A stretch of DNA of 64,000 nucleotides. It comes from an uncultured Smithella sp. GTDB lineage: Bacteria > Desulfobacterota > Syntrophia > Syntrophales > Smithellaceae. How positions within the stretch are numbered: position 1 is the stretch's first letter; every line of letters begins with the position of its first letter. Location of the stretch: assembly GCA_964646755.1 (NCBI GenBank), contig CAZYIE010000006.1, positions 2,266 through 66,265 of the forward strand. Direction: 5' to 3'. The position numbers were made by a program, and so were the translations under genes. Positions 42,571 through 59,929 of the stretch are shown here, one piece after another. The notes beneath the pieces are model-generated. The model did not search any database. It was not told the DNA's origin and saw only the letters and a program-made list of their open reading frames with translations.

Positions 42571-43854
42571 ATGACTGCAATCAAAACAAATTATTTTACT
42601 GACGCCAGGCTTGTTATTGCCGGTGGCGTCAACTCCCCTGTTCGCGCCTGGCAATCGGTTGGCGGCGATCCTCTTTTTATCAGCCACGCCAGCGGCAGTA
42701 AAATCTGCGATGCCGCAGGCCGGGAATATATCGATTTTGTGCTTTCCTGGGGACCGATGATCTTGGGTCATGCTCATCCGGACGTTATTGACGCTATTTG
42801 CGACACTGCCCGGAAAGGAACAAGCTTCGGTGCACCGACCGAGGCGGAAACGCAAATGGCGCAACTAATCGGCTCAGCCATACCTTCGATGGAACTTGTG
42901 CGCATGACCAGCTCCGGAACGGAAGCGGCAATGACGGCAATTCGACTGGCCCGGGGCTACACCGGACGGAATATGATTATTAAATTTGACGGCTGCTACC
43001 ATGGCCATGCCGACTCCTTGCTGGTTCAAGCCGGATCGGGAGTTGCCACCTTGGGAATACCCGGATCCCCGGGCATCCCCGCATGCCTGGCCGAGCTGAC
43101 CATCAGCCTGCCATACAACAATATTGATACAGTGCATGAAGCTGTTGAGCGTTATGGATCACAACTGGCAGCAATTATCGTTGAACCGGTGGCGGGGAAC
43201 ATGGGTGTCGTAGAACCGCAGAATGGATTTTTAGCCAAGCTCAGAGAACTGACAACACGACACGGCATCGTTTTAATATTTGATGAAGTTATCACCGGTT
43301 TCCGTTTTGCTTTTGGCGGTTATCAGAATTTAATCGGGGTTAAACCCGACCTGACCTGCCTGGGTAAAATAATTGGCGGCGGTCTGCCCATAGGGGTTTT
43401 AGGAGGGAAAAAAGAAATAATGGAGGCACTTGCTCCCATAGGAAATGTTTACCAGGCCGGAACTTTATCGGGAAATCCCCTAGCCGTAAATGCCGGCTTA
43501 GCCACCCTTAATCTGCTCCAGGCAAAAGCTGATTCCTATGCTGAGATTGACAAAAGAACAGAGCAACTCTGCAGGGATTTGGAAAAAATCTTTTCTGCCA
43601 AAGGCATTCCCGTATGCATCAACCGCTTCCATTCCATGTTTACATTATTTTTTCAGGACGGCCCCGTTAATAATTTCCTTGACGCAAAAAAATCGGAGAC
43701 GTCTTTATTCGCCAAATTTTTCCATGGCATGATCAAGGAAGGCATTTGGCTGGCGCCATCGCAATTTGAAGCAAACTTCATCTCGTTTGCCCATACAAAT
43801 GCCGATATAGCTTTTACCCTCGAGGCTTGTGCAAACACATTAGAACATCTCTAA
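42571..43854 (+). CDS. hemL: glutamate-1-semialdehyde 2,1-aminomutase
   Basis: 427-aa class III aminotransferase with the motifs SGTEA, FDEVITGFR and LGKIIGGGLP. Confidence 0.95.
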   Translation: MTAIKTNYFTDARLVIAGGVNSPVRAWQSVGGDPLFISHASGSKICDAAGREYIDFVLSWGPMILGHAHPDVIDAICDTARKGTSFGAPTEAETQMAQLIGSAIPSMELVRMTSSGTEAAMTAIRLARGYTGRNMIIKFDGCYHGHADSLLVQAGSGVATLGIPGSPGIPACLAELTISLPYNNIDTVHEAVERYGSQLAAIIVEPVAGNMGVVEPQNGFLAKLRELTTRHGIVLIFDEVITGFRFAFGGYQNLIGVKPDLTCLGKIIGGGLPIGVLGGKKEIMEALAPIGNVYQAGTLSGNPLAVNAGLATLNLLQAKADSYAEIDKRTEQLCRDLEKIFSAKGIPVCINRFHSMFTLFFQDGPVNNFLDAKKSETSLFAKFFHGMIKEGIWLAPSQFEANFISFAHTNADIAFTLEACANTLEHL

Positions 43855-44006
43855 GGAAGCCAGTGGCCTATAGTTTGTTGGGAAGGCTGTCGCACAACAT
43901 TTACATTCGGGCATCTTTCTCACAGGAGCGGCTGTACCTGAATCAAGATGGGACAGGCTCTATACGTCCAGGGATAGGTCTCCTCAATATGCTCCATTCT
44001 CCCAAA

Positions 44007-44043
44007 GGGTTATATATTGCACCGGGTGTAATATATAACCCCC
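44007..44043. promoter_or_regulatory. near-perfect palindrome, candidate enhancer (UAS) site
   Basis: GGGTTATATATTGCACC-G-GGTGTAATATATAACCC(C). Its centre is about 113 bp upstream of the GG of the -24 element. Confidence 0.6.
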
Positions 44044-44136
44044 TCAAAATAAGTTCAGCATTTTTTAGCTTGGTTATACAAATTAATCATTAATAATTAC
44101 AAACACATTGCATTTATCACTCCTGCGTTTATCCTT

Positions 44137-44152
44137 TGGTATTCAAATTGCA
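44137..44152 (+). promoter_or_regulatory. sigma-54 -24/-12 promoter
   Basis: TGGTATTCAAATTGCA against the consensus TGGCAC-N5-TTGCA. GG and GC are separated by exactly 10 nt. Confidence 0.65.
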
Positions 44153-44326
44153 ATTACGCAAGTCGGAAAAGTACCGACTCAGTGCCGGGAAAATAACAGC
44201 TATTGGGATTAGTGAAATTTTATATACAAGCTAAGACAAAGCATATTTTAAATATGCTGGAAGTTCATCGAAGGCAAGTTGGAAATACTTAATTTAAAAG
44301 ACATTCTTTATCTGGAGGATTCTATC

Positions 44327-45520
44327 ATGGGCTTACTTACACGAATAAAAATGAGCATTTTGCTGGCAGGCGGAGAATTGATGAACGTCCCAATACCGGA
44401 GACATTTATCGGAGCAGGATCGCGTTCAAAGATTGGTGATTGGTGTAAGGAGCATGGATATAAACGGGCAATTATTATCATGGATAAAGTTGTAAAAGAG
44501 CTGGGCATAGCGGATAAAATGTTAGATTCCTTAAACAAAGCGGGGGTCATTTATCATATATATGATAATGTTTTGCCTAATCCAACGTTGAGCATGGGTA
44601 AGGAAGCAGCAGCAATCGGTAAAAACAACAATATTGATGTCGTTATCGCTATCGGCGGAGGTTCGCCAATAGATTGCGCTAAACTTACATCAGCTGCAAT
44701 CACAAGCAAAAAACCCATTAATAAATTGCTCGGAATGATGAAGGTCAGGCAAATGCCCTTGCCATTGATTGCAATTCCGACAACAGCAGGAACAGGCTCA
44801 GAAGTTAGCATGGGTGCAGTTATCAGTGATGATGTCACTCACATGAAATCAATCATGGCATCGCCAAAAATTGTTCCCAAATTAGCCGTGCTTGACGGTG
44901 AAACAATGACAGGATTACCAAAACAGTTGACAGCAGGGACAGGCTTTGACGCACTTACGCATGCCGTGGAAGCTTATATAGGTTTTCACTACAACGCAGA
45001 TGCAAAGCGTAACGCTGCGGAAGCCATTGCTGCCATTCTTAAATATCTCAAACGTGCATATGATAACGGCAGTGATCTTGAAGCACGAGACGCACTTGCT
45101 CTTGCATCTTACAAAGCGGGGCTGGCCATGAACAAATGTTCATTGGGATATGCACACGCTTTTGGACATCGGCTTACCGGATTTTACGATCTGCCGCACG
45201 GTATGGCAGTAGGAATGTTCTTGCCGCATGTGATTCAGTATAATAAAAAAGCAGCCGAAAAAGAGCTTGCCGAGCTTTCTGTTGCCTGTGGCCTTGGAAA
45301 AACCACAGATTCGAAAGACAGCCTGGCGGAAAAATTTGAAAAAAGCATTTTTAAATTGTACGACCAACTAAAACTGCCAAAGAAATTCGACAAACTTAAG
45401 AAGTCTGACTATGATCAGATTATTAAAGAAGCATTTAAAGAAGCCAATAGCACTTATGGAGTTCCAAAATATATGACAAGAAAAGAAGCGGTAGCGTTGC
45501 TGGATAAAATATTACCATAA
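44327..45520 (+). CDS. iron-containing alcohol dehydrogenase
   Basis: It has the motif GGGSPIDCAK and the His cluster (HAVEAY, HAFGH, HG). The start is ambiguous between TTG 44279 (track), ATG 44327 (GGAGG 8 nt upstream) and ATG 44381 (GGAG 5 nt upstream). Confidence 0.88.
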   Translation: MGLLTRIKMSILLAGGELMNVPIPETFIGAGSRSKIGDWCKEHGYKRAIIIMDKVVKELGIADKMLDSLNKAGVIYHIYDNVLPNPTLSMGKEAAAIGKNNNIDVVIAIGGGSPIDCAKLTSAAITSKKPINKLLGMMKVRQMPLPLIAIPTTAGTGSEVSMGAVISDDVTHMKSIMASPKIVPKLAVLDGETMTGLPKQLTAGTGFDALTHAVEAYIGFHYNADAKRNAAEAIAAILKYLKRAYDNGSDLEARDALALASYKAGLAMNKCSLGYAHAFGHRLTGFYDLPHGMAVGMFLPHVIQYNKKAAEKELAELSVACGLGKTTDSKDSLAEKFEKSIFKLYDQLKLPKKFDKLKKSDYDQIIKEAFKEANSTYGVPKYMTRKEAVALLDKILP

Positions 45521-45622
45521 AACTTTATATCATTAAGGACAATCCGAAAGTGGCCAGCGTTTAAATTATTGAACGAAGTTATGCAAATGTTGCATTTATT
45601 AAACTAATTCTGGGGGCAACCT

Positions 45623-47578
45623 ATGGCACATGGATACATGGGCAGAATTTTAATGGTAGATCTACAGGAAGGCACCTGCCTGGAGGAAGTAATTCCGGAT
45701 GAGGTGTATGAAAATTATCTGTCTGGAACCGGGCTGGCGGCGCGTATCCTGTTCGACCGGATACCGGCGGGGGCTGATCCTTTAGGTCCCGATAACATTC
45801 TGGGATTTATTTCCGGACTATTGACAGGAACGGGCAGCATGTTTTCAGGTCGGTGGAGCGTTGCCGCTAAATCCCCGCTCACCGGAACCTGGGGGGATGC
45901 CAACTGCGGCGGAACATTTTCGCCCGCTCTTAAGCGTTGCGGCTATGACGGCATTTTTTTCAAGGGTATCAGTCCGAGACCAGTTTATCTTCTGGTGGGA
46001 AACCGCAAGGCGCAGCTTCTGGATGCAACAGAGCTCTGGGGTAAGGACACCATTGAGACAGAAACAATTTTGACCGAGCGCCACAGCAGCCGCAGGCAGG
46101 CAAAAGTTGCGTGCATTGGTCAGGCCGGCGAGAAGATATCTTTGATCTCGGGTGTGTCCAATGATCGGGGAAGAATGGCTGCCCGCTCCGGCCTCGGCGC
46201 CGTAATGGGGTCCAAGCGACTCAAGGCTGTTGTCTGCAACGGCGTACTTCGGATCGGGGCATTTGACCGGGAAGAAATTAGCCGGCATTCCAAGAAATGC
46301 AGCAAGTTTGTTGTCAGCCCCGTTCCATTTATTAACGGTAAGGGCGCGGCCTTGCTGGGCAAGCTCCTTGGTTCGATCCCCGTCGCCATGGCCCAGAATC
46401 CTCTTCTCATGAAGATTATCAGCCGCAAATGGGGAACCTGCGCCATGAACCAATTGTCGCCGCAGATGGGCGATTCTCCCCTTCTGAACTGGAAGGGCAG
46501 CAGCAAGGACTGGACCATCGAACGTTCAAATTCGGTTAATCCCGACCTGATCGTGAGCCGGGAGAAGGTAAAATATCATTGCTACTCCTGTCCCATGGGC
46601 TGCGGCGGGATCTGCACCATGTCGGGGAAATACAGCGAGACTCACAAACCGGAATACGAAACCACCCTGGCTCTGGGTGGACTCTGCCTCAATGAAGATT
46701 CAGAGAGTATATTCTACCTGAATGAACTTCTTAACAGGGCTGGTATGGACACCATTTCCGTCGGCGGCACCGTGGCCTTCGCTATCGAATGTTACGAGCG
46801 TGGCGTCATCACGAAGGAAGACACGGGCGGGCTGGAGCTCACCTGGGGCAACAGTAAAGCTATCATTGCCCTGATCGAGAAGATGATCGCCCGGGAGGGG
46901 ATTGGTGATCTGCTGGCCGACGGGTCGCGAAAAGCTGCGGAACGGATCGGTCATGGTTCCATCGAATGGGCCATTCAGGCCGGCGGCCAGGAACTCCCCA
47001 TGCATGACGGTCGCAACGATCCCCTTTTCAGCGTCCATTACAGTGTTGACCCCACGCCCGGTCGTCATACCACGGGGGCATTCCTCTATTATGAATTCTT
47101 CCAGCTCTGGAAGGAGGCCAAAGATCTGCCCAAAGTACCCTTGATCAGCTCCAAAAACAGACGCTACATTGTCGATGATGAAAAAGCCGCCATGAGTGCG
47201 GCCATGAGTCAGTTCAAGCGTGTCATCGACGGGGCGGGCTTGTGCATGCTCGGCAGTACTCTCGGTATCCGGGCAGTACCTCTCTTCAAATGGCTGAACG
47301 CGGCGACGGGATGGCACAAGACACCGGAAGATTATCTGGAAATCGGGAGGCGTATTCAGACCCTTCAGCAGGCATTCAATGTCAAGCACGGTATAGAGCC
47401 GAAGGGCATGAAGATCAGTGAGCGGGCCATCGGGCGCCCGGCCCTGCTGGATGGTCCGAACCGCGGTCGGACATATGATCTTGAATCTATGATGAGTAAA
47501 TACTGGGAACGGTTTGGCTGGGATTCCCGGACCGGGAAGCCAACTGAGGATACAATGAGGAAATTGGGAATCCGTTAA
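45623..47578 (+). CDS. aor: aldehyde:ferredoxin oxidoreductase family (tungstopterin)
   Basis: 651 aa with the AOR N-domain (GYMGRILMVDL...SPLTGTWGDANCGG) and the cluster motif CYSCPMGC. Confidence 0.9.
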   Translation: MAHGYMGRILMVDLQEGTCLEEVIPDEVYENYLSGTGLAARILFDRIPAGADPLGPDNILGFISGLLTGTGSMFSGRWSVAAKSPLTGTWGDANCGGTFSPALKRCGYDGIFFKGISPRPVYLLVGNRKAQLLDATELWGKDTIETETILTERHSSRRQAKVACIGQAGEKISLISGVSNDRGRMAARSGLGAVMGSKRLKAVVCNGVLRIGAFDREEISRHSKKCSKFVVSPVPFINGKGAALLGKLLGSIPVAMAQNPLLMKIISRKWGTCAMNQLSPQMGDSPLLNWKGSSKDWTIERSNSVNPDLIVSREKVKYHCYSCPMGCGGICTMSGKYSETHKPEYETTLALGGLCLNEDSESIFYLNELLNRAGMDTISVGGTVAFAIECYERGVITKEDTGGLELTWGNSKAIIALIEKMIAREGIGDLLADGSRKAAERIGHGSIEWAIQAGGQELPMHDGRNDPLFSVHYSVDPTPGRHTTGAFLYYEFFQLWKEAKDLPKVPLISSKNRRYIVDDEKAAMSAAMSQFKRVIDGAGLCMLGSTLGIRAVPLFKWLNAATGWHKTPEDYLEIGRRIQTLQQAFNVKHGIEPKGMKISERAIGRPALLDGPNRGRTYDLESMMSKYWERFGWDSRTGKPTEDTMRKLGIR

Positions 47579-47632
47579 TTGCCCACCACACCCGCGTCCC
47601 GGTCATGTACGTCCAGTTGAAGGGAGGAATCG

Positions 47633-48040
47633 ATGTCGTTTATAATCAATGAGTCATGTAAAGGCTGCAATGCCTGTGTAAAGATCTGTCCAACCAAAGC
47701 GATAGCGGGCGAAAAGAAAGAGAGACATGTCATAGATGCCGTCCTTTGTATCGAATGCGGAGCCTGCGGCAGAACTTGCCCCGAAGGAAGTATAGAAAAT
47801 GAGCTCGGTCATGCCTGCCAGATGATCAAGCGTTCAGCCTGGCCGAAGCCGACATTGGACAAGAAGAAATGCTCTTCCTGCGGTATCTGCATCGATGCCT
47901 GTCCGGTTGGCTGCCTGGCACTTACCCAAGCAGGGGAAGATGGTATTCATCCCTATCCATATCTTCGGGACGCAAAAGTCTGCATTGCCTGTGAATTCTG
48001 CATGACCAGCTGTCCCAACGAAGCCATTAGTATGGTCTGA
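47633..48040 (+). CDS. ferredoxin with four [4Fe-4S] binding motifs
   Basis: 135 aa with four CxxCxxCxxxCP motifs. Confidence 0.88.
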   Translation: MSFIINESCKGCNACVKICPTKAIAGEKKERHVIDAVLCIECGACGRTCPEGSIENELGHACQMIKRSAWPKPTLDKKKCSSCGICIDACPVGCLALTQAGEDGIHPYPYLRDAKVCIACEFCMTSCPNEAISMV

Positions 48041-48112
48041 CGCAAATTACAGGCCCTGTTACATTATAAATTATTGATACTAGGATTTGACTTATAAAAA
48101 GAGGAGGAGAAG

Positions 48113-48982
48113 ATGACAGACATCAGCGGTAAGAAAGCCATTATAACCGGAGGTGCTATGGGTTATGGTCTTGCCACCTGCAAGGAATTGCTAAAGGCGG
48201 GATGCGACGTAACTATCTGGGACATGGCCGAGAAACAAATGCAGGATGCATTGGAAGAACTGAAAAAAATGAAACTGGGCAAGGTTTATGCCTATAAGTG
48301 CGATGTTTCGGATATAAAGAGAGTCAACGAACTTGTCGAACAGGCCAAAAAGGACATGGGCAGCGTGGATATTATGATCAACAACGCGGCGTATTTGAGA
48401 GTAGCCTATCTGGTCGACATGTCGATAAGTGACATTGTGAAACACACGGAAGTGAATGTTAATGCCCACTACTACACTATAAAGGCGGTTTTGCCCGACA
48501 TGATGGCTCGCAATTCCGGTTGGATAGTAAATATCTCCTCCGCGGCAGCCTTTGTAAGTATGGTGAGAGGAGTGCCCTATACATGCTCTAAATGGGCGGT
48601 GCATGGCATGTCTGATGCGCTGCGGCTCGAGATGAAAGCTCTGGGCAAGAATGGCGTCAAGGTCATGTCCGTACATCCGGGACTGGCTGCTGGCGGAAGC
48701 ATGTTTGCAGGAGCAAAAATGTCCAGGATAACATCCCTGATATTTCCGAAGGTAGAGCAAGCCGTTCTAGGCCAGCGCATTGTCAATGGTATCCGGAAGG
48801 GCAGGACCATGGTCTGCTGCCCGCGGAGCGGTTACCTCTTTTGGATGTCGCGAGGATGGGTGCCTAATTCTGTATATGACAGTCAACAGCAGTTACTGGG
48901 AATGTCCCAGTTCGCCGACACTATTGTGGGAAGGCCGGGCATGGCTCACACCGACGTAAAGGATCCTGGAAAAAAGTCCTAG
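48113..48982 (+). CDS. short-chain dehydrogenase/reductase
   Basis: 289 aa with TGGAMGYG, NNAA and the catalytic YTCSK. Confidence 0.85.
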   Translation: MTDISGKKAIITGGAMGYGLATCKELLKAGCDVTIWDMAEKQMQDALEELKKMKLGKVYAYKCDVSDIKRVNELVEQAKKDMGSVDIMINNAAYLRVAYLVDMSISDIVKHTEVNVNAHYYTIKAVLPDMMARNSGWIVNISSAAAFVSMVRGVPYTCSKWAVHGMSDALRLEMKALGKNGVKVMSVHPGLAAGGSMFAGAKMSRITSLIFPKVEQAVLGQRIVNGIRKGRTMVCCPRSGYLFWMSRGWVPNSVYDSQQQLLGMSQFADTIVGRPGMAHTDVKDPGKKS

Positions 48983-49174: not shown

Positions 49175-51139
49175 CTATGGTGTTACGATAGCGAACGTAG
49201 CCGGCGGTTTTTCGAGCAGAGAGAAAAAGCGTATTAGATCGATCCTGCTGCCGCTTATTTTAAAGTCATCGTTCATCAGCGTGTTTTTGACACCGGCGTT
49301 GCCGGTCATCAGCGCGATGAAGATGTCTTTGGGCATGGTCAGAGTTGCATTGGCATTGTCCTCCGGCTTTGTCTTCTTGTGATGCAACACGGCATTTTCT
49401 ATCCAAAGAACAAAAGATTCACGAGTATCGGAAATTATCAGGTTGATTTTTATATTCTTGTCCTCCGCGTCCGGGCCTTTAAGGCTTGCGGCCATAGCAT
49501 TTAGGAAAGATTCAACCGGCGTTTGCCTGAAAATGTCGGCAGCATAGCTGCTATCCATGCCTTTCTTCGGCGGACCATTGCGTAATTCAGCGGCCGCTGT
49601 AAGATAGCTGTTGCGCCAGGTGGCAGCTTCGGCCATGTAACCCATCTGGTCGTAGGTGCTTGCCAGCAAATCAACCGCCCTCTTATTGCTGGGCTGGGCA
49701 AACACAACTTGGTTCAGCAACTCAGCCGTCCAGCGGTATTCTCCCTTGTCGAAGGCAACCTGAGCCGCCGTTATGGCCTTGTCGGCGCCGATCAGCTCAA
49801 TATAGCGCCTGGCTGACTCCTCGGGCGGCAACGGATTGAGGTTAGCCGGATTGCCATCATAGAAGCCCATATAGAATTGATAGACAGCTTTGACATTGTG
49901 GCGCAGATCACCATAGTAGCCGCGGCTGGCCAGATAGTTCGAAAGCGATTGGGGGAATTTTATCATATCGGCAATTTCACGCGGTGTGTAGCCGGCGTTG
50001 ATCAGACGCAATGTCTGGTCATGGGTGTATTTATAGACATCGCGATGCTTGGTGATGAATTCGGCAATGCGTTCCCGGCCCCAGACCGGCCAGTTGTGCT
50101 GGGTGAAAACCACATTAACTTCCGCGGTTTGCTCCAGTGCCTGGTCCAGATAATTTGACCAGGCCAGGGAATTGCGCGCCTTGGCGCCGCGCACCGGAAG
50201 AAGATTGTGCATGGTCTGCTGGATAATTTCCGCACCGCAATAAGCCTTCTTATCGGGAAGCAGAAAGGTCAACTCAGCGGGAGCTTCTGACCCCGGTACG
50301 TTATAGAAGGTAAAACGAACACCGTCAACAATCAGATCTTCCTTTGGTTGTTTGATAATCCGATTCGGCGGAAGAATACCCATGCTGCCCCACGCCATTG
50401 CCTTGCCCAAACCAGTATCAACAAGGCCACTGACGGAGCGTTCAAGATTACTACCAAACTGATAGGCTGACCGGCGTCCAATTGCATTACCGACAAAGAC
50501 ATTTTCACTGATGGCTTCCTCGAGGAATCCATCCGGGGCAATTACGGGAATCTTGCGTTTTGCCACATCCTCAGGTAAAATCACGCCCAGAACACCGCCG
50601 AAGTGGTCTAGATGGCTGTGAGTGAAAATAATTGCCGAGACCGGTTTATCGCCCAGGTGCTTGCGGGCAAAGGCGATTGCAGCTGCCGCAGTTTCGCGAC
50701 AGCTCAACGGATCGACCACGATCCACCCGGCATTCCCCTCAATCAGGTTCATATTAGCGATATCAAAGCCCCGCAACTGGTAGATACCTTCCGTAACTTT
50801 GAACAGCCCGATATTAGCGTTGATAATGGAGTGTCGCCAGAGGCTGGGATTGACCGTTGCCGGGACTTTGCCTTGAACAAAATTGAATTCATCAAAATCG
50901 ATCAGCACATCGCCCTTTGCGCTGATAATTTTCCCGGTCGGTCGGGCAATAAAACCGCGGCGGGCGTCCTCAAAGTCCCGGGGATCATCGAGTTTCAGCG
51001 ACTGCGCGAACTGTTCATTGGCCTTCACAGTAACAGCCGTCGCGTCACCAGGCCTGCTATCGCCGGCGGAAGCATTGCCGTAGCCGGCAATAATTGCCGT
51101 AAATGCCAGAAAAATAGCCATTTTGATTAAATTTTTCAT
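49175..51139 (-). CDS. MBL-fold alkyl/aryl sulfatase (SdsA1/BDS1 type), secreted
   Basis: 654 aa with a signal peptide, the motif THSHLDHFGG, a dimerisation region and an SCP2-like C-terminus. Confidence 0.85.
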   Translation of the reverse strand: MKNLIKMAIFLAFTAIIAGYGNASAGDSRPGDATAVTVKANEQFAQSLKLDDPRDFEDARRGFIARPTGKIISAKGDVLIDFDEFNFVQGKVPATVNPSLWRHSIINANIGLFKVTEGIYQLRGFDIANMNLIEGNAGWIVVDPLSCRETAAAAIAFARKHLGDKPVSAIIFTHSHLDHFGGVLGVILPEDVAKRKIPVIAPDGFLEEAISENVFVGNAIGRRSAYQFGSNLERSVSGLVDTGLGKAMAWGSMGILPPNRIIKQPKEDLIVDGVRFTFYNVPGSEAPAELTFLLPDKKAYCGAEIIQQTMHNLLPVRGAKARNSLAWSNYLDQALEQTAEVNVVFTQHNWPVWGRERIAEFITKHRDVYKYTHDQTLRLINAGYTPREIADMIKFPQSLSNYLASRGYYGDLRHNVKAVYQFYMGFYDGNPANLNPLPPEESARRYIELIGADKAITAAQVAFDKGEYRWTAELLNQVVFAQPSNKRAVDLLASTYDQMGYMAEAATWRNSYLTAAAELRNGPPKKGMDSSYAADIFRQTPVESFLNAMAASLKGPDAEDKNIKINLIISDTRESFVLWIENAVLHHKKTKPEDNANATLTMPKDIFIALMTGNAGVKNTLMNDDFKISGSRIDLIRFFSLLEKPPATFAIVTP

Positions 51140-51211
51140 TAAAAAATTCTCCTTTTTGCAAAAGTCATGTCTTTACCATCGACCGTCTATTTTTTGGCAA
51201 ACTACTGCTGC

Positions 51212-51565
51212 TCAGCACTTGGAAGGCGACAAAACGGGGTCCGCATCAGGATCATAAACTACATCACCATTTTTCAGCACGGGATTGATTTTTTCAAACC
51301 ACGCATTGGTCATGCCCGGCACATTCCTTAGCTGAAGAGGATCTTTGAACGGCCCTTTCTTCGTCCGATATTCTACTATCGCTTTGGCCAAGGATTCGGG
51401 CATCTTAAATTCCTCAATACTCGTCAATTGTTTTACCGTGGCCTTATTCAAACTGAGAACCTTCTGCTGCGCCTGGGCAACCACTATCGTCCCCCCCAAA
51501 AAGGCCAATGTAAAAATGAAAATTAATGTAAAATACGCACCCGAGACTTTTTTTCTTGTTTCCAT
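51212..51565 (-). CDS. ComEA-like helix-hairpin-helix protein, exported (copy 2)
   Basis: METRKK..., a hydrophobic N-terminus, then LNKATVKQLTSI...LAKAIVEYRTKKGPFKDPLQLRNVPGM. A GGGAGG SD lies before ATG 51565. Confidence 0.7.
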   Translation of the reverse strand: METRKKVSGAYFTLIFIFTLAFLGGTIVVAQAQQKVLSLNKATVKQLTSIEEFKMPESLAKAIVEYRTKKGPFKDPLQLRNVPGMTNAWFEKINPVLKNGDVVYDPDADPVLSPSKC

Positions 51566-51675
51566 ATTTCCTCCCAATAAATATTTGATTCTGGTTTTCC
51601 CCATTTTTAAAAGCAAAGGAATAAACGGTCTTCCTTCACCCAGATTGAAATTTACTTAACTCTACATTCCTCCGG

Positions 51676-53118
51676 TTATTTTTTCGCGGAGACATCTTTG
51701 ATCCGGAACTTATTGTTATCCAGAGGAATCACCGCCTTCTCAATGGGCTTCTTCAACTGCGGGATATAATCATAGGGCACCCTGTATGCGCGATATACCA
51801 GGTTGAACTTCCCCGTATCGACAAAATAGGGGCTGATGTATTCCCAGACGATTTCCCCTTCCGCAGTCACTTCCTGAAGCTGCCCCACTGCGCCGTTGGT
51901 AATAAGCGTGTTGCCGTTGGGCAGTCGCTGTGCGGAACTGACGTAGTGACTGTAAAACTTGGATTCTTCCCTGTAACCCTGGGTCTTCCCAGAAAATTCC
52001 CAGGCGATTCTGAGCGTGGTGGGATCTATCTCGATCACCCGCGAATAATCGCGACTTGCATTATTCAAGCCGGTTGTACTGACGGGGTTCGGAGAACCGT
52101 AACCGGCGCGACCGCCGTTGTCGTAGATTAAAATATTTCCCTCGCCCGGCAGACCCTTGGGAATCATGTGGGCGTGATGTTGCCCGATAATCCATCCCAG
52201 ATTTTTATAGGCATTTCTATACTGCTTGCCGCCAAAGAACCAGATGCTGTCGGACGCGTAGTAGGGGCCTACCTGCCAAACGCGCTTCTTAGTCTTTTTG
52301 TCGATTATTTCAATGGTGTTGGTCTGACGGCCGTCTGTTATGATGTTTTCCGGATGAAACATGGAATACTTGACCGGGTCCTGATCATACCATTTATTGG
52401 GGCCAACATAAGAAGCGCTGTTGATATGGATCCAGTCCCCCCCTGCGACTCCCTTAACTCTCGTTGCTGCAAAATTCGGATGTTTGTAAATAGTGTTTTT
52501 ATCTTCTTCCTTCCAGCCCATCTCCGAGAAACCGTCGCTGAAGAGGTATTCCCATAAGATATTACCCTTGCTGTCGACTTCGACGAGATAATCGTCCTCA
52601 AGGAGCTTGTCGCTTATTTTCTTATTAGTAACCATCTTATGGCCAAGGATCAACACCTTGTCTGTCTTGAATTCCTGCGGCATGCCCGGCACCCAATAGC
52701 CGACCGGATTGCCCGGAAGCTGGAAGTCGTGATGCATCCCTGCCTTAGGCAGGCTCCAGACTATCTTGCCGTTCCAATCCATAATCGACAAATCCGTCGA
52801 TTCGGGATGCTTCCACAGCCGGCCGATATGGTCCGGTTTTCCCCGGGTGGCACCCATAATATAACCACCTTTGAGAATTTTAACCGGATGATCCAGATTG
52901 CTCATTTCTTTCCACTGTTTTACAACGTTCCCGTTCATATCGACCAAAACGGTACCTTCCCCTTCCGTCTCCGTAGCATAAACGGTATAGCCGTTCTGGC
53001 ATTTTTCAGGCTTATAGATGGTCGTCCCCGTCGGATACACGGTTGGAAAGCCAAAGACAGCTGATGGCAACATCAGCAATACGGACATCCCCCATAAGAT
53101 CAATCTAGATTTTTTCAT
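51676..53118 (-). CDS. arylsulfotransferase (ASST) family beta-propeller protein, secreted
   Basis: The signal peptide is MKKSRLILWGMSVLLMLPSAVFG. The motifs GMHHDFQ, GDWIHINS and GQHHAHMI...ILIYDNG resemble the ASST/Arylsulfotran_2 families. A GGAGG lies before ATG 53118. Confidence 0.7.
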   Translation of the reverse strand: MKKSRLILWGMSVLLMLPSAVFGFPTVYPTGTTIYKPEKCQNGYTVYATETEGEGTVLVDMNGNVVKQWKEMSNLDHPVKILKGGYIMGATRGKPDHIGRLWKHPESTDLSIMDWNGKIVWSLPKAGMHHDFQLPGNPVGYWVPGMPQEFKTDKVLILGHKMVTNKKISDKLLEDDYLVEVDSKGNILWEYLFSDGFSEMGWKEEDKNTIYKHPNFAATRVKGVAGGDWIHINSASYVGPNKWYDQDPVKYSMFHPENIITDGRQTNTIEIIDKKTKKRVWQVGPYYASDSIWFFGGKQYRNAYKNLGWIIGQHHAHMIPKGLPGEGNILIYDNGGRAGYGSPNPVSTTGLNNASRDYSRVIEIDPTTLRIAWEFSGKTQGYREESKFYSHYVSSAQRLPNGNTLITNGAVGQLQEVTAEGEIVWEYISPYFVDTGKFNLVYRAYRVPYDYIPQLKKPIEKAVIPLDNNKFRIKDVSAKK

Positions 53119-53172
53119 CAGAAACCTCCACATTTCCTCTCCATCATCACTTGTTAAAACCATCCTTCGTTG

Positions 53173-53616
53173 TCAGCACTCGATAACCCGTGCACCCGGT
53201 ATTTTACGGACTTCTGCAGCCAAGTTCTTCTTCAGTAACGGGAATATTTTCTTCTTTACTTTCTCCAGATAGATCGCCTTGTAGCCCTTTTGGGCTTCAG
53301 TAACGACAGCCAATACCAGATCATCCGTCTCTACGAAATCAATTTCAATCGGCACGCACATTCTCTGCGCCATTCCGCGGATCTCTTCTGCTACTTGGCG
53401 ACCTTTTTCCAAAACCTGCTCGCGTATGTAAAGAAGAAATCTTTGCTTATTGAGACGTGGTGCAACCAGGTCAACATGGGCATAGTGGTACAGTTCCGAA
53501 TCGAGAACCAGAAGAACCCTGATTTTTTTTGCTTCGGATTGTGCTGAACGCAATGCCTTTTCGACGGCTTTCATGCTGCCATCACTTTGATAAACTACCA
53601 GAATACTGTCTTTCAC
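53173..53616 (-). CDS. hypothetical protein, possibly USP-like alpha/beta fold
   Basis: The GTG start at 53616 has GAGGA 7 nt upstream. The pattern ILVVYQSDGS...RVLLVLD...LAVVTEA suggests a USP/ETFP-type fold; this is weak. Confidence 0.4.
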   Translation of the reverse strand: MKDSILVVYQSDGSMKAVEKALRSAQSEAKKIRVLLVLDSELYHYAHVDLVAPRLNKQRFLLYIREQVLEKGRQVAEEIRGMAQRMCVPIEIDFVETDDLVLAVVTEAQKGYKAIYLEKVKKKIFPLLKKNLAAEVRKIPGARVIEC

Positions 53617-53665
53617 AATCCCATCCTCAGATAACACAATTGGTAATATCGAACATAAACGGACC

Positions 53666-53836
53666 TCAATAGAGACCCACAAACTGCAAAAACCAGAGGA
53701 TAAATACGGCGCCGATCGCGATTACCATCGCGATGTATTCATCGACGCGATGGCGCCGCTGTTTGGCTTCAGCCGCTGCCACTACCTTCTGGAGATCATC
53801 ATCTATTGTATTCTTCTTGTCCAAATCATCAGCCAT
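53666..53836 (-). CDS. small single-TM protein
   Basis: MADDLDKK...YIAMVIAIGAVFILWFLQFVGLY, 56 aa. A GGAGGAG lies before the ATG. Confidence 0.5.
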   Translation of the reverse strand: MADDLDKKNTIDDDLQKVVAAAEAKQRRHRVDEYIAMVIAIGAVFILWFLQFVGLY

Positions 53837-53900
53837 AACAGCTCCTCCCCTTATTATCACCAGACCACGCTTCAGGCGTTTACCTCACTACAAAATCATA

Positions 53901-55067
53901 CTACTTAAAAAATCCCATCTTTATGAATATAAACAACAGCAACAGACAAAGGCCTATTCTCAGCGACCCCGCCACATACCCGATTACAATACCCTTGGTC
54001 CCTGCTTTTCGCAAATCCGACAGCTTGGTTGACATTCCCAGTCCGACAAAGCAGATGGCAAAGAACCACTCCATAACATTACCCATCGCTTCACTGGCAG
54101 GTACAGGCCAAACCTGCAGGCAGTTCAGTGTCCAGACGAAGGCAAACCCAAAAACGAAAAGGGGAAACTTTTCCTTGAGTACTTCCCAGAAGCTGATCTC
54201 TGTTGACCTTAACTCCTTGCCCAATGTCATGAAATAAATGAACAAGACACCAGCGGGAATCAACACCAATCGCCCGATGTTCGTAAATCCAGAAACCTTT
54301 CCCGCCTCGAAACTGAAATTAAAGCCGGTGGCGATCACCTGATTAGAATTGGGAACCCCGGCCGCAGCGAGCAGGCCGAATGCATCATTTGACATACCCA
54401 GAAGCTTCCCCACAAATGGAAGTGCAAACAGGCAAAAAAGGCCGAACGTGACCGAAACCGCTATCGCATAGGCCACCTCTTCGCTTTTGGCCTTCACCAT
54501 CGGGGCAATGGCGATGCATGCCGACACGCCGCACATCGAAAAGGCCGCAGCGAGGAGACCCGTCATGGCGTCACCCATCTTGAAATAACGCCCCATAAAT
54601 GTAAAAATCAGCGCTCCCCCGAAGACCATAAACGCCATGACCACGATGCTGATGGGACCAAGCTTTATAAGGTCTCGCAGCATGTATTGGGAACCGAGCA
54701 TAATGATTCCCACATTCATAAAAACTGCGCTGTAGGTTAATCCTGGTTCCCATGAATTCGGAACACCGATAACGTTGCGGATAAGGATACCCACAATGAG
54801 ACAGGTCACCACGTAATTGAAGTGCAGGAGGTCAACAAAAAAACCCTTGCCGTAGACCGGCGGCAGTACCGCATCTATGTAGCGCAATAGACTGTCCAGT
54901 GTGAATGGAAAGTCTATACCCGGAAGACCGCAGAGCACGGCCAGAACCGTCATGGCCAGAAGTCCGGGCCAACTCTTCTGAAAGCTGGGTAGTGCACTCC
55001 AGACGGAGGGCTTCCTTATCTCCGGCTGTCCACCAGCCGCCTGATCATAAGTTATATCTTGTGCCAT
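53901..55067 (-). CDS. YeiH/UPF0324 (putative sulfate exporter, PSE) family transporter
   Basis: 388-aa polytopic membrane protein. Its overall pattern is typical of the Cons_hypoth698 family (from memory). Confidence 0.65.
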   Translation of the reverse strand: MAQDITYDQAAGGQPEIRKPSVWSALPSFQKSWPGLLAMTVLAVLCGLPGIDFPFTLDSLLRYIDAVLPPVYGKGFFVDLLHFNYVVTCLIVGILIRNVIGVPNSWEPGLTYSAVFMNVGIIMLGSQYMLRDLIKLGPISIVVMAFMVFGGALIFTFMGRYFKMGDAMTGLLAAAFSMCGVSACIAIAPMVKAKSEEVAYAIAVSVTFGLFCLFALPFVGKLLGMSNDAFGLLAAAGVPNSNQVIATGFNFSFEAGKVSGFTNIGRLVLIPAGVLFIYFMTLGKELRSTEISFWEVLKEKFPLFVFGFAFVWTLNCLQVWPVPASEAMGNVMEWFFAICFVGLGMSTKLSDLRKAGTKGIVIGYVAGSLRIGLCLLLLFIFIKMGFFK

Positions 55068-55097
55068 TTTTTATATCTCCATTTCGCTTTGGTGCTG

Positions 55098-57974
55098 TTA
55101 CTTCAGTCGCCATACTTCGCGGTAGGCCAATCTTTCCAGCAGTGTCTTCCGCAGAAAATGTTCCGTTGTCCCATTTACCCCGACCATAACGTCCACGTTG
55201 TTTCTGGGCAGTTCCGCCAGGTTCGGACTCTTGCGACCATCTTTATCCTCAATGTGCCAGGCCTGTATCTTCTCACCATCGAAATCATCGATGACGATCT
55301 TGAAATATCCCTCCGGCCCAGTATAAGTCGGATGCTTGGCATCAAGAATAATAGGTTCCGGATTGTCGATAATGAACTCATTGAGCATATAGCAGTGGCC
55401 GCATACGTCAGGACGCATGGTATAACGGTGGTCCTTCGCCCATGGCTTGTCGCGCTCCAGCTTATGCGCGCCCGTCCAGGCATAAAGCGTGACATTGCCT
55501 CCCTTGAAATCGGCGGGCAAATCTAGTTCTACGTGAATATCCTTGTACTGCATCATCACCTTTTGCTGGGAGGGACTGTACTGCGGAAGCGTGTCATAAA
55601 CCGCCTGATTGACAGGTCCCAATGTTTTCTCCATGACAACCTTGCCCTTTGCGTTAAGGAGAACAAGTTTCACCACTTTACTCGCCTGATCGACGCTGAC
55701 AATCCTCAGTTTGTGCTGACCGATAGCAGCTTCTCCTCCGGCCTTCAGAACAAGCTTTTGTGGCTCCTCATAGGAAATAGTAAAAGAATCCATACCGGGA
55801 GTACCCATCTCCGCAATCTCCACAACATCGGGGCTTACCCAGTTGGGAATGGCGTAAGTCGCCCCCTCGGCATATATATCAGGCAGGCTATAGGTCTGAT
55901 TCGCAAAGGAGGATTGGGCATCCCCGTAAATCGGGTTGTAATTGCTGAGTCCGGGGCCCAGAAGCATATCCGCTCCAAAGGCGTTGCCGGAATACTTGAC
56001 AATCCGCGCTTGGGCCACGGGCCGTCCCCAGAGCATGCGCGTTCCCAGGAAGCGAATAGTCTTGGTTCCGTCCCCGAGAGGCACATCCTGCCAGAAAAGC
56101 GGGTTTCCATCACCCATCGGCAGAAGTTTCCAATAATCGATGGCCGTGTTTTTCTTGACGACAAGATAGCTTTCCGTGCTCAGGACATAGGCCTTTTTAC
56201 CGAGAATGTAAATTGATTCACCCACGAGAGGGCGTACATTTCTGCCCAGGCGGGTGGAATAATACAGGCCTGCTGGCGGAATGACGATTTTCCCGTTTCG
56301 GTAGTCCACATAACTGCCGCGGATGACGATGGCATCAGCGCTCGTGAGCTTTTCGCCTTTGCGCGATGTCACGTTTTTGCGTGTAAGCCCCTTGAGCTTG
56401 GGAACAAAAGCGCACGTCGGATCGGGGGCAAACCCCTTGGCGGACTTGATCACGCGCGGATACGACGAAAATGTGGACTTGACCACCGGCACACCGTATG
56501 TGGGATCGGCCAGCCGGGTTAAAAAAGTATCCTCCATCACCGAGACGACAAGTTCACTCATCCCGATAAAAAAATCGATGTTTTCTCTTCCCTCTTTCCA
56601 CAGAATCAGGTTATCCGTCCGACGAAACCAGGAATCTCTGGCATAGCATGTTTTGACAACATCACCTGCAATATCGTCCACAACAACTTTGAAATACCTT
56701 CTGTCCCAGAAATCGGATATACTGATCGGACCATCGTAGGAATTGTTTTCTTTGGTCAGCACAAAGGGACTATTGTTTTCGAGCACGACGCGCTTGAGCA
56801 TGCCGGTCATCTGCTCCGCCTCCAGTCCGACAGTGTAACGGTTGTCCCTCGGCCACGGGTCGCCGTTTTTGAGTTTGACCAAGTCATGATAGATCATCAG
56901 GGAAACCGTGCCGTTTTCCCAGCCAAACGGAGCATCATTGGACCAGGGGACCCAGTCCGATCCCTTAAACATACTTGGATTCACAACCAGTTCGATGTGC
57001 ATGTCCAGGTTGAAATCGGTGAGGGTCATTTTGTCGATATCCGTGACCTTGTATTCCTGCTGAGTCACCGGAAGAAGTAGCTTGGACGCCAGGATTTTTC
57101 TGCCGGTCCAGTTGCGCACCTCAACCAGAATACCGTTCTCCTTCCTGTAAGTATATATCCTCTTGTTCCTCCACCACCGGAAGCTCTCCTGCTGCACGCC
57201 GATTACGTAGGGCCGATCCAGTGAAAAAACGGCCTCCGAAATCACGGGATATGTCACCTCTGAAAAGACCGCATCTTCATGGGTCAACTTCTTGGTTTTC
57301 AGCCTGGTCGCGCCGAAGGTGTAGTTACTGGTGAGGAAGAAGGGCAACTGCTGGGGGTTAACCCCCGCTTTCAGCTTTAAAGCCCTTGCCTTCTCCGGCT
57401 CGGGGAAAGATGATGAAACGGGCATCTCCAACTGCCAACCTCCGGAGGGCGCCATAACGGCAAACTCGCCATAAGGCTTGCCATAGTGGTCAGTCGCGTA
57501 ATCGAACCAGAGACGATAACCCTTCTCATCCAAAAGTGCTTTGTCCCTCTTGTTCAAAGCCACATTTTTTTTCGTCACCTGGGCCGTTTTCAGAGAGAGA
57601 AGGTAAGAGGTCTCACCGAGAATCAGAAAAGGATCGCTTCTTAGCGGCTTGGCATCCATAGATGTGGAGGAAGCATAGAAAAAGCCGCCAGCCGGTACCG
57701 AAACCTTTCCTTCCTGAACGCGGCTACCCCGCAGAACGATACACTCGGCCAGTTCTTTCTCCTGCCCGTAATGGTTCGTCAATTTCTTATTTAAGAGCCC
57801 CGACAGCTGAGGAATGTAGGTAGCGTCGTCGGCCGGAGGAAGACCATGGGGCCTCTCCACCCCAACCGAGTAACCGGGCAACAACAGAACCATATAAAGC
57901 GCGAAGAGGCAAACGAAAAGAGATCCTCTGCGAAGCGGAAACGGTCTTATTCTGCGCAAGAGCGAATTCAGCAT
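55098..57974 (-). CDS. large exported orphan protein with a tandem ~435-aa internal duplication
   Basis: The start is taken at ATG 57974 (MLNSLLRRIRPF...hydrophobic). The halves at aa ~66-505 and ~536-966 (974-aa numbering) align by eye. Examples are YIPQLSGLLNKKLT/FVPKLKGLTRKNVT, PAGGFFYASS/PAGLYYSTR, GDPWPRDNRYT/DKPWAKDHRYT and RYFKVVVDDIAGD/GYFKIVIDDFDGE. I recognise no enzymatic motif. Confidence 0.8.
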   Translation of the reverse strand: MLNSLLRRIRPFPLRRGSLFVCLFALYMVLLLPGYSVGVERPHGLPPADDATYIPQLSGLLNKKLTNHYGQEKELAECIVLRGSRVQEGKVSVPAGGFFYASSTSMDAKPLRSDPFLILGETSYLLSLKTAQVTKKNVALNKRDKALLDEKGYRLWFDYATDHYGKPYGEFAVMAPSGGWQLEMPVSSSFPEPEKARALKLKAGVNPQQLPFFLTSNYTFGATRLKTKKLTHEDAVFSEVTYPVISEAVFSLDRPYVIGVQQESFRWWRNKRIYTYRKENGILVEVRNWTGRKILASKLLLPVTQQEYKVTDIDKMTLTDFNLDMHIELVVNPSMFKGSDWVPWSNDAPFGWENGTVSLMIYHDLVKLKNGDPWPRDNRYTVGLEAEQMTGMLKRVVLENNSPFVLTKENNSYDGPISISDFWDRRYFKVVVDDIAGDVVKTCYARDSWFRRTDNLILWKEGRENIDFFIGMSELVVSVMEDTFLTRLADPTYGVPVVKSTFSSYPRVIKSAKGFAPDPTCAFVPKLKGLTRKNVTSRKGEKLTSADAIVIRGSYVDYRNGKIVIPPAGLYYSTRLGRNVRPLVGESIYILGKKAYVLSTESYLVVKKNTAIDYWKLLPMGDGNPLFWQDVPLGDGTKTIRFLGTRMLWGRPVAQARIVKYSGNAFGADMLLGPGLSNYNPIYGDAQSSFANQTYSLPDIYAEGATYAIPNWVSPDVVEIAEMGTPGMDSFTISYEEPQKLVLKAGGEAAIGQHKLRIVSVDQASKVVKLVLLNAKGKVVMEKTLGPVNQAVYDTLPQYSPSQQKVMMQYKDIHVELDLPADFKGGNVTLYAWTGAHKLERDKPWAKDHRYTMRPDVCGHCYMLNEFIIDNPEPIILDAKHPTYTGPEGYFKIVIDDFDGEKIQAWHIEDKDGRKSPNLAELPRNNVDVMVGVNGTTEHFLRKTLLERLAYREVWRLK

Positions 57975-58291
57975 GTGCAGTCCTTGCCTCCTATTCCTTC
58001 CAGAATAAAGAATTTGTCCCATTTCTTAAGGAGTGTCCGGTTCATGCCGGGAACCTGGAGAAGCTCTTCCTTCTGCTGAAAATCTCCATTGTCCTTGCGA
58101 TATTTTACAATGTTTTTCGCCAGTTCAGGGGTCATCGCCGGAACATTCTTCACCAGTTCCTCGACTGTTGCCTTGTTGATATTGACCGATTTTCCCTTGA
58201 GCAATTCAGCAGCCGACGCCGTTCCGACCAGCAAACTGACAAAGAGCAAGGCGACCAACAAACACATACGTACAACACATTTTCTTTTCAT
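57968..58291 (-). CDS. ComEA-like helix-hairpin-helix protein, exported (copy 1)
   Basis: 107 aa with a signal peptide, then INKATVEELVKNVPAMTPELAKNIVKYRKDNGDFQQKEELLQVPGM. An AAGGAG SD precedes the start. Confidence 0.7.
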   Translation of the reverse strand: MKRKCVVRMCLLVALLFVSLLVGTASAAELLKGKSVNINKATVEELVKNVPAMTPELAKNIVKYRKDNGDFQQKEELLQVPGMNRTLLKKWDKFFILEGIGGKDCTC

Positions 58292-58309
58292 ATGATTATT
58301 TCTCCTTAT

Positions 58310-59242
58310 TCACGGCATATACGTCAGGCGATATGCCGCAGCGATAATATGCACCTGGCCCGAGTAGACCAGAACCAAACGCAATAGGAACCCTCCGGCC
58401 AGAGGTGCACCGAGGACCATCAAAACCCGAAAAAGCCCTGTCTCCCCTTTTCTGAAAGCGAGAAACAGGGGAAGCAGCAGACCAACGCCGACAACCCCCA
58501 GCCACAAGGCAAGGCCGCTGAAACCCATGATCAGAGGAATCAGCACTTTCGGCCTCATGACAGGGACAAAAAAGAGGAGAAAAAAGAAGAGTAGCGCCAG
58601 GCCATAGGCCGGCAGAAGGATGCGATAAGATCGCTCCAGCCGCTGGAATGGTCCTGCCATCAGTGCTCGCCGCTTTTGGGGAAAAAAGAGGAGGGCAAGC
58701 AGAAACCCGCCCGCAAACCCCGTATCCAGAGCGGAAAGGCAGAAAAGGACCGGCAGGGCCGAGTTTCGCCAGAGAGGAACGGCGGTGGTAGAAAGCAGCA
58801 CGCCTGTGTAGATGGCCACGAGCAAGGCCAACGGAACGCCCACCCATCCCAGGGCGTCGCAGACCCTCTTCTGCGACCAGATGGGCCACCTGCCGATCAC
58901 GGGAATGCGCTCCCGCGCCGCGGCGGGGAGCCAGCAGAGGGCATAGAACGTGGCGATTAGGAAAAACAAGGTGAGCAGCCAGACCCCTAGGGACATGGGC
59001 GAAAGTCTGTTGAAGACCGTCAAGGTAAACCAGAAGCGGGTCTTATAGCCCAGATCGGCGACCAGCATGGCCAGGCCGAAGGCAAGTGCCGGCGGCACTA
59101 GAAGCGCCGATGCCCGTGAACAGGCCGAAAAGCCTTCGCCCCCCCCTCTGCTCATCAGGACGGCAAAACAAAAGGCACCGGCCGCCACGCCGGCGGAAAA
59201 AAGATACAGGACGACAGGCATGCCCCAGGTGATCTCACTCAT
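58310..59242 (-). CDS. NrfD/PsrC-like integral membrane subunit
   Basis: MSEITWGMPVVLYLFSAGVAAGAF..., with about 8 predicted TM helices. It overlaps the Fe-S subunit stop by 8 nt. Confidence 0.8.
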   Translation of the reverse strand: MSEITWGMPVVLYLFSAGVAAGAFCFAVLMSRGGGEGFSACSRASALLVPPALAFGLAMLVADLGYKTRFWFTLTVFNRLSPMSLGVWLLTLFFLIATFYALCWLPAAARERIPVIGRWPIWSQKRVCDALGWVGVPLALLVAIYTGVLLSTTAVPLWRNSALPVLFCLSALDTGFAGGFLLALLFFPQKRRALMAGPFQRLERSYRILLPAYGLALLFFFLLFFVPVMRPKVLIPLIMGFSGLALWLGVVGVGLLLPLFLAFRKGETGLFRVLMVLGAPLAGGFLLRLVLVYSGQVHIIAAAYRLTYMP

Positions 59243-59897: not shown

Positions 59898-59929
59898 GGC
59901 TATTCACAAACCTTCCTCCCGTTTCGGCA

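Follow-up and report, generated by a model that had tools for sequence, protein, structure and literature searches.

Promoters of the UAS-IHF-sigma-54 type (upstream activating sequence, integration host factor, sigma-54) include Pu of the TOL plasmid with XylR, nifH with NifA and glnAp2 with NtrC. In Sinorhizobium meliloti, Better and colleagues are said to have described, in 1983, NifA/sigma-54 nifH and fixA promoters with a long common upstream homology. A similar arrangement is described here for an uncultured syntrophic lineage, the Smithellaceae. It involves two noncoding segments, called cassettes A and B, in a 64,000-nucleotide stretch of DNA from an uncultured Smithella sp. (the window: GenBank assembly GCA_964646755.1, contig CAZYIE010000006.1, positions 2,266 to 66,265; coordinates below count from its first letter). 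The ThrS protein encoded in the window is 89-91% identical to proteins of Smithellaceae and "HGW-Deltaproteobacteria-12" MAGs, which agrees with an origin in the Smithellaceae (Syntrophales). One ancestral regulatory region of about 260 bp was probably the source of both segments, each of which would be a working sigma-54-dependent promoter region.

Regulon growth by whole-promoter duplication is described for FixJ and fixK of S. meliloti (Ferrieres et al., 2004, as cited in a passage of PMC3738161). The closest characterized system is OrpR of Desulfovibrio vulgaris Hildenborough, in which a PAS-domain bacterial enhancer-binding protein (bEBP), IHF and sigma-54 act at the orp operons (PMC8359166). 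The OrpR site is a 17-bp palindrome, GGGCGYRTTTTGCGCCC, and three conserved Cys residues of the PAS domain bind a 4Fe-4S cluster (PMC8359166). In D. vulgaris, bEBP genes as a rule lie close to the promoters they control, according to the portion of PMC8359166 that draws on Kazakov et al. (2015).

Cassette A (43997-44252, plus strand) and cassette B (62322-62580, minus strand) are reverse-complement paralogs. Alignment of 43997-44252 (+) with 62580-62322 (-) by blastn gives 79.3% identity over 261 columns (E=5.4e-57), within the 75-80% estimated in a preliminary description of this DNA, and the same relationship appears in a MAFFT alignment and in three adjoining inverted-repeat blocks (I1-I3) from a repeat search of the window. 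The alignment is far better than chance; in addition, the 27-nt palindrome core has zero matches in any shuffle of the window. The duplication had been put at about 330 bp, but the homologous block measures about 256-261 bp, and the outer 60-100 nt on the upstream side of the broader intervals give no A/B alignment in MAFFT. Each cassette consists of a UAS palindrome, a spacer, an AT-rich box, a -24/-12 promoter and roughly 90 nt of leader. The homology does continue beyond the predicted start sites, for about 90 nt rather than the 110 nt first suggested.

Related contigs provide further copies. L016 and L017, both from ENA sample ERZ25039503, were reached through members of the 90% cluster of the iron-type alcohol dehydrogenase (Fe-ADH) that follows cassette A. 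L017 carries one cassette, ahead of Fe-ADH; L016 carries two in direct orientation, one at 9669-10004 before Fe-ADH and one at 14811-15045 between the SDR and molybdenum (Mo)-enzyme genes. A further contig, L004, comes from JGI metagenome 3300020048 and matches the window without a difference (100% identity) over cassette A. An nhmmer profile built solely from five A/B copies (window A and B, L016 A and B, L017 A) matches all five with E below 1e-64, including cassette A at 43986-44249 (E=2e-77) and cassette B at 62593-62325 (E=1e-79), and finds the window otherwise free of cassette copies (2 in 64 kb). The genes downstream are indeed unrelated, with Fe-ADH in one case and a molybdopterin oxidoreductase with a twin-arginine translocation (TAT) signal in the other (Pfam), and the same two cassettes stand ahead of the same two operons in L016, as expected if a regulatory cassette and not a gene was duplicated.

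The element farthest upstream in each cassette is a near-perfect palindrome from the repeat search, GGGTTATATATTGCACCGGGTGTAATATATAACCCC at 44007-44042 in A and, in promoter sense, GGGGTTATATATTACACCCGGTGCAATATATAGCCCC at 62536-62571 in B. At 35/36 bp, these agree with the 35-37 bp first reported and are predicted bEBP-binding sites. Palindrome centre and first G of the -24 GG are 114 bp apart in both window copies, equal as previously noted although not at the 113 bp then given, and this spacing is kept because two 1-nt indels in the A-B spacer offset each other (MAFFT). Across seven A/B/C copies (copy C is described below) the distance ranges from 111.5 to 116 bp. Both palindromes have the form of a UAS, namely an inverted repeat lying about 80-150 bp upstream of the -24 element and common to promoters that would be co-regulated.

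The -24/-12 element of cassette A, TGGTATTCAAATTGCA, occupies 44137-44152 (+), with GG at 44138-39, GC at 44150-51 and a predicted start site near 44163. That of cassette B, TGGCATTTAAATTGCA, occupies 62425-62440 (-), with GC at 62427-26 and a predicted start site near 62414. The exact GG-N10-GC spacing reported for these positions stands, and GG-N10-GC with TGGYAT/TTGCA is present in all eight related promoters (window A and B; L016 A and B; L017 A; L018 C; L019 C; L020). TGGYAYN5TTGCW has just two matches in the 64 kb, which are these two elements; with a chance mean of 0.37 and at least two matches in 10 of 100 shuffles, the match count taken alone is weak evidence, and position and conservation carry the argument. 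Both elements lie upstream of an operon and face it, a position kept in relatives. From GC to start codon there are 176 nt to the Fe-ADH ATG and 328 nt to the Mo-enzyme ATG, and the leader of cassette B up to the ATG at 62098 is 316 nt long. The RpoN-box motif RRT[VI][ATS]KYR is absent from the window and the fetched loci; the only indirect pointer to an rpoN gene is an intact bEBP ortholog in the metagenome that yielded L004.

Between enhancer and promoter lies a conserved AT-rich box, ATTAATnATnAATAATTACAAAnAnAT... at 44084-44118 (+) in A and, by alignment with the related copies, 62459-62494 (-) in B, a candidate bending site for an architectural protein such as IHF or HU. In the five A/B copies, conservation is highest precisely at the three elements predicted to be functional: invariant columns make up 64% of the palindrome (despite a flipped segment in copy A), 71% of the AT box and 76% of the promoter, against 39-44% of the spacers and leader and 26% of the upstream flank. 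A UAS, a bending site and a sigma-54 promoter would be expected to leave just such a footprint, and this unevenness bears out the reading of the duplicated segments as regulatory cassettes.

The leader is less constrained. L016 copy B has no distal leader homology (+60 to +100). Its promoter is only about 75 nt from the Mo-enzyme ATG, and the difference from the window looks like the result of a deletion, some 250 nt in size, between short AAAAA..GGTT repeats (L016 15040-15070 versus window 62099-62375). Because this copy lacks that part, homology past about +60 is dispensable, a matter of inheritance and not of need. The 173 nt upstream of a 92%-identical Mo-enzyme ortholog (L014) cannot be aligned with the window leader. 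A 42-aa open reading frame (ORF) in the cassette B leader (62095-62223, minus strand), whose end overlaps the Mo-enzyme start as ATGA, is probably not a gene, because it is not conserved in L014 or L016.

The palindrome of window copy A has one peculiarity: compared with the other four A/B copies, the 11 nt at its centre are flipped. In promoter sense, four of the five copies read TTACACCC(A/G)GTGCAA. The exception is window copy A, which has TTGCACCGGGTGTAA, precisely the reverse complement of what window copy B has. On the (+) strand, the two window cores (44011-44042 and 62540-71) match at all 32 nt (100% identity) despite the inverted cassettes. The flip has the look of a small inversion of the 11 nt flanked by 12-nt arms, or of a short conversion event with its template in the "wrong" orientation, and three separate point mutations would be a less likely source. 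This same-strand identity is the sole sign of intragenomic exchange. Concerted evolution, in which gene conversion would keep A and B alike within genomes, was considered and rejected: pairwise identities of the five A/B copies are 75-78% (84% for L016A-L017A), and the star-like identity matrix groups copies neither by genome nor by A versus B.

A third copy extends the family. L018 is an extension of the same 190-kb contig as L016, and the two together read, on one strand, cassette A, ADH to SDR, cassette B, Mo enzyme to sulfatase, a sigma-54 activator gene, cassette C and an ASST-like operon. Immediately after the activator gene, L018 and L019 both have a third TGGCAT-N5-TTGCA element. Cassette C heads an operon of ASST-like, spermine-synthase-like (SpeE-like) and HHH_3 genes; its palindrome is 38 bp long (GGGGCGATATGTCA...TGACATATCGCCCC) and centred 111.5-113.5 bp upstream of the GG, with an AT-rich box between. 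Because the A/B profile finds the C copies collinearly (L018, E=1.2e-7; L019, E=2.5e-5), the cassette family has at least three paralogous members, of which C is the more diverged. An activator gene in the L018 cluster, followed by a third paralogous cassette, also agrees with the preliminary reading of duplicated cassettes that presumably answer to one bEBP.

The same architecture reaches a more distant relative. P0145 is a 58-59%-identical bEBP homolog with an identical helix-turn-helix (HTH) recognition helix, NPSTLRSRMKKLGI. Its gene is followed by the same layout, a palindrome (GGGCGACAT...ATGTCGTCCC), an AT box and TGGTATGTAAATTGCT, before unrelated DUF1302/DUF1329 genes. The palindrome-AT box-promoter architecture therefore appears to belong to this bEBP clade. 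On L020, the contig of this homolog, the palindrome-promoter region and the first DUF1302 codons are themselves duplicated (780-1060 versus 7745-8025), and the second copy adjoins insertion sequence (IS) fragments (rve, DDE_3); this is another promoter-region duplication, linked to transposition.

As the preliminary description stated, the window contains no AAA+ bEBP gene: none of the bEBP signatures (GAFTGA-like loop, Walker A, ESELFGH) occurs in its six frames. In L018, a sigma-54 activator gene directly follows the alkyl sulfatase gene of arm B, and its reconstructed product is a PAS-AAA+-HTH protein. A search with this reconstruction yields intact orthologs at 92% and 87% identity, after which identity drops to 58%. 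The 87% ortholog, P0142 (513 aa), is encoded on contig Ga0207193_1011213 of JGI metagenome 3300020048, and its 99.6%-identical twin, P0266, on a 38.6-kb NCBI contig. That the activator ortholog lies on a different contig of the metagenome that also holds L004 would account for the lack of a bEBP gene in the window. P0142 comprises PAS (71-165), Sigma54_activat (207-373, E=5.6e-71), AAA_lid_14 and HTH_8 (E=6.6e-7) domains with a GSFTGA loop, and its best PDB match is ZraR (1ojl, E=1.6e-83). P0142 and P0266 accordingly have the makeup of NtrC-family bEBPs, a Sigma54_activat AAA+ domain with a GAFTGA-type loop and a C-terminal Fis-type HTH; Pfam finds no Response_reg domain in P0142, which sets it apart from NtrC response regulators, and its PAS region has no cysteine. 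This one-component PAS-AAA+-HTH_8 protein, encoded outside the window, is the most likely activator of A and B, at somewhat better than even odds.

The proposed mechanism would be a standard enhancer-dependent sigma-54 system with one activator for both arms, which is the likely reading on the sequence features assembled here. A bEBP dimer or higher oligomer would bind the palindrome, the centre of which is 114 bp away from the -24 GG on the upstream side. The AT-rich box between enhancer and promoter would be bent, either intrinsically or by an IHF/HU-type protein, bringing the AAA+ ring to sigma-54 RNA polymerase waiting at TGGYAT-N5-TTGCA. ATP hydrolysis would then open the promoter as the ring remodels the closed complex at -24/-12, and transcription would run from about 44163 (+) into the ADH/AOR operon and from about 62414 (-) into the Mo-enzyme-to-sulfatase operon. 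Both arms, and probably the C operon too, would answer one signal, received by the PAS domain. The bending protein might come from the IHF/HU-family DNA-binding protein gene at 4430-4702 (-), downstream of pheT (Pfam Bac_DNA_binding, E=6e-32), which had been listed as ihfA in the window.

Several observations weigh against this reading. Part of the A/B similarity is plain common descent. Ortholog cassettes (75-77% identical) show divergence no lower than the four-fold degenerate sites of the adjacent Fe-ADH, which are 75-87% identical between the same genomes; because these sites are similarly identical, much of the 260 bp may be drifting near neutrally. The similarity could accordingly be a fading remnant of a segmental duplication or rearrangement, with one or both copies no longer regulated promoters, and the loss of outer leader homology in L016 B would fit such a history. 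Decay is nevertheless quite improbable, as the palindrome, AT box and GG-N10-GC are intact in all five A/B copies and the invariant columns cluster there, compensating indels preserve the spacing, the cassette B promoter is closer to the sigma-54 consensus than that of cassette A, and neither operon has a good-quality alternative sigma-70-type promoter (no sigma-70-like match in 43800-44400 and one weak 9/12 match in cassette B). The E. coli IHF consensus WATCAANNNNTTR, which may not be that of the Smithellaceae, has no match with 0-1 mismatches in 44043-44136 or 62441-62535; the AT-rich spacer of the preliminary description survives as a conserved box, and IHF bending is a guess from that box. 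Frameshifts interrupt the bEBP gene in L018. Split genes on this ENA contig (contig_20765) include those of the AOR (aldehyde:ferredoxin oxidoreductase; L016 11338-13294), the Mo enzyme (L016 16179-17063) and the bEBP (L018 12192-13738), and because intact orthologs exist and the AOR and Mo enzyme are also split, the frameshifts are probably long-read assembly errors, not pseudogenes. Finally, only about 10 of 14 half-site positions are common to the A/B palindrome and that of C, the cassette beside the bEBP gene, so A and B could be served by a different bEBP, and P0142/P0266 is proposed as their activator with that reservation. Were A and B sigma-54 promoters whose enhancers bind a bEBP encoded elsewhere, the cluster-linked PAS-bEBP would control C only. 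The inner parts of the C (GGGGCGATATGTCA...) and A/B (GGGGTTATATATTA...) palindromes do differ from end to end, as do about 4 of 14 half-site positions, the L020 homolog has a C-like and not an A/B-like site, and Desulfobacterota typically have many bEBPs (PMC4641369). Such a division of labour is still unlikely: a single bEBP gene was found within the roughly 38 kb of the relative's contig read (L016 and L018), directly after arm B; A/B and C are collinear paralogs with common GGGG-NN-ATAT...ATAT-NN-CCCC ends and the same spacing; and bEBP genes usually adjoin their targets, as in the portion of PMC8359166 cited above.

Two further explanations would give the palindrome another role altogether. 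Homology between genomes starts at the cassette edge (43997) with different upstream DNA in three genomes, the island edge of L016 has a tRNA-Asn gene some 430 bp upstream, arm B is inverted as a block and the palindrome A centre is flipped, all of which would suit a mobile or miniature element (MITE-like, for miniature inverted-repeat transposable element, or attC-like) with an outward promoter, whose palindrome is primarily a recombination or structural signal. That is very improbable, given that no terminal inverted repeats or target-site duplications flank the 260-bp unit, no integrase or transposase adjoins the cassettes in the window, L016, L017 or L018, and every copy sits in promoter position before an operon. 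The many dispersed copies typical of MITEs are also missing. The window holds no extra copies, and scans for ATATTRCACCNGGTGYAATAT in 596 Gb of genomes and in metagenome contigs returned no genuine extra copies, with matches outside the window's own population being chance hits in coding or eukaryote-like DNA. The homology of about 90 nt into the predicted leader and the strong hairpin that the palindrome could form raise the idea that the conserved part is a transcribed RNA element (riboswitch, attenuator or small RNA), or that the palindrome terminates the upstream gene. It is scarcely credible in view of the searches for structured cis-regulatory RNAs and intrinsic terminators. Rfam returns nothing for copy A at E<=1 and two sub-threshold chance matches for B, and the RNAalifold consensus of four leaders reaches -2.4 kcal/mol with 0 compensatory pairs. 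Neither palindrome has a T-run or terminator-like site (the post-stem sequence is CTCAAAATAA), the divergent ackA upstream of copy B leaves nothing there to terminate, and L016 B has lost its distal leader.

The blocks around the cassettes are rearranged between genomes. The convergence of the two operons, part of the preliminary description, holds in the window and is specific to this genome, since the relative has all units in one direction. The B block (window 49176-62604, from the edge of cassette B to the alkyl-sulfatase stop) is inverted with respect to L016 14811-21194 plus L018 94-11964. The window also differs from the related 190-kb contig in that it lacks the bEBP and C block and has ackA beyond cassette B. 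Recombination between palindromes was considered as a way of turning the L016 layout into that of the window and rejected, as the breakpoints do not fit, one of them lying at the sulfatase stop where there is no palindrome. Homology of the three genomes starts exactly at 43997, the upstream edge of cassette A (L016 9669; L017 9669). Upstream of that edge, the window has a hemL-like gene, L016 tRNA-Asn (9164-9239) plus about 430 bp of unrelated DNA, and L017 an AMP-binding enzyme gene. The G+C content of the island is 0.49-0.57, compared with 0.44-0.47 in the flanks. Edge-exact homology, differing upstream DNA and G+C content suggest that the island might be transferable or prone to rearrangement. 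Because homology starts at the cassette edge, block B is inverted and the 11-nt centre of palindrome A is flipped, the cassette could even be a self-contained, portable sigma-54 "plug-in" that gets copied ahead of new operons, marking the borders of blocks (A, B, bEBP plus C) reshuffled between Smithellaceae genomes, with the palindrome serving as both enhancer and recombination or inversion hotspot, although this idea is rather doubtful.

The arm A operon (44327-48982, plus strand) is 88.6% identical to L016 at the nucleotide level over the whole arm. By Pfam, it encodes Fe-ADH (44327-45520), AOR (45623-47578), a 4Fe-4S ferredoxin (47633-48040) and an SDR (48113-48982), all on the plus strand. 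Upstream of copy A, a class-III aminotransferase gene, the hemL-like gene mentioned above, ends at 43854. Copy B lies between the arm B operon and a divergent acetate-kinase gene (ackA), which has its start at 62867, reads MKILVLNCGSSSLKY and is cut off by the end of the window. Arms A and B converge, with their ends 192 nt apart.

The arm B operon (49175-62098, minus strand) is a tightly packed 13 kb, collinear with L016/L018 at 81-86% identity but inverted. All its genes are on the minus strand, with domain assignments from Pfam. It begins with a bis(pyranopterin guanine dinucleotide) (bis-PGD) Mo/W enzyme, the TAT-signal molybdopterin oxidoreductase (62098-59930, Psr-like), followed by a 4Fe-4S subunit (59897-59235) and an NrfD-type membrane subunit (59290-58310). 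A small HHH_3 protein (57968-58291), a 974-aa protein without a Pfam domain (58022-55098; the relative's counterpart, L018 3254-6049, has 931 aa), a YeiH-like protein (55067-53901) with small ORFs after it, an arylsulfotransferase-like protein (53163-51676), a second HHH_3 protein (51212-51616) and an alkyl sulfatase (51139-49175), the last gene, whose stop is at 49175, complete the arm. The TAT signal of the Mo/W enzyme (59930-62098) and its FeS and NrfD partners amount to a Psr/Phs-like layout, whereas annotations of its homologs are only generic, either "anaerobic selenocysteine-containing dehydrogenase" or formate dehydrogenase. One homolog, L015 (69% identical), occurs on its own next to genes of Mo/W uptake and Mo-cofactor synthesis and a LysR-type neighbour, a context that contains no cassette. 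Small HHH_3 (ComEA-like helix-hairpin-helix) proteins recur in the third block, once in C (L019 6367-6693; L018 18167-18490), and are odd company for redox and sulfatase enzymes.

For annotation of the uncultured, syntrophic Smithellaceae, the cassettes offer a concrete regulon prediction. Three blocks would fall under one PAS-type sigma-54 activator: alcohol and aldehyde oxidation, the Psr-like Mo/W enzyme with sulfatase and sulfotransferase-like proteins, and the ASST-like/SpeE-like block. The eight aligned promoters provide a first footprint of binding-site and spacing rules for an uncharacterized bEBP clade. Known sigma-54 control is not overturned; the cassettes are a clean natural example of regulon expansion by copying a whole promoter-enhancer region and not by acquiring new binding sites.

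Comparison with known systems places the cassettes within familiar territory. Classical UAS-IHF-sigma-54 promoters similarly combine -24 GG/-12 GC elements and an AT-rich spacer able to bend with an inverted-repeat enhancer some 100-150 bp upstream, whereas the E. coli IHF consensus is unmatched here and the palindrome is unusually long. NtrC sites (TGCACC-N5-GGTGCA) recall the half-site TGCACC, a likeness remarked on in the preliminary description together with the different spacing. The halves of the window palindromes, TTGCACC and GGTGTAA, stand 1-3 bp apart and do not reproduce the N5 spacing of the NtrC-type dyad, and the likeness is superficial, as the candidate activator is a PAS sensor without a receiver domain and not a response regulator. 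As in the system described here, the two operons that OrpR activates each follow a copy of the same imperfect palindrome; its bEBP gene is in the cluster, as is that of L018. OrpR differs in its 17-bp site (35-38 bp palindromes here), its unrelated target genes and the Cys residues of its PAS domain, which the PAS region of P0142 lacks; moreover, whole promoter regions of about 260 bp are paralogous here, not binding sites alone. The S. meliloti case is alike in that an entire regulatory region was copied before unrelated genes, placing them under the activator of the original promoter, and differs in organism, activator family member and target pathways. Here, three diverged copies head three gene blocks whose order and orientation vary between the genomes seen. 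As such, the cassettes are a tidy but ordinary case of regulon growth by promoter duplication, one that would not surprise a specialist.

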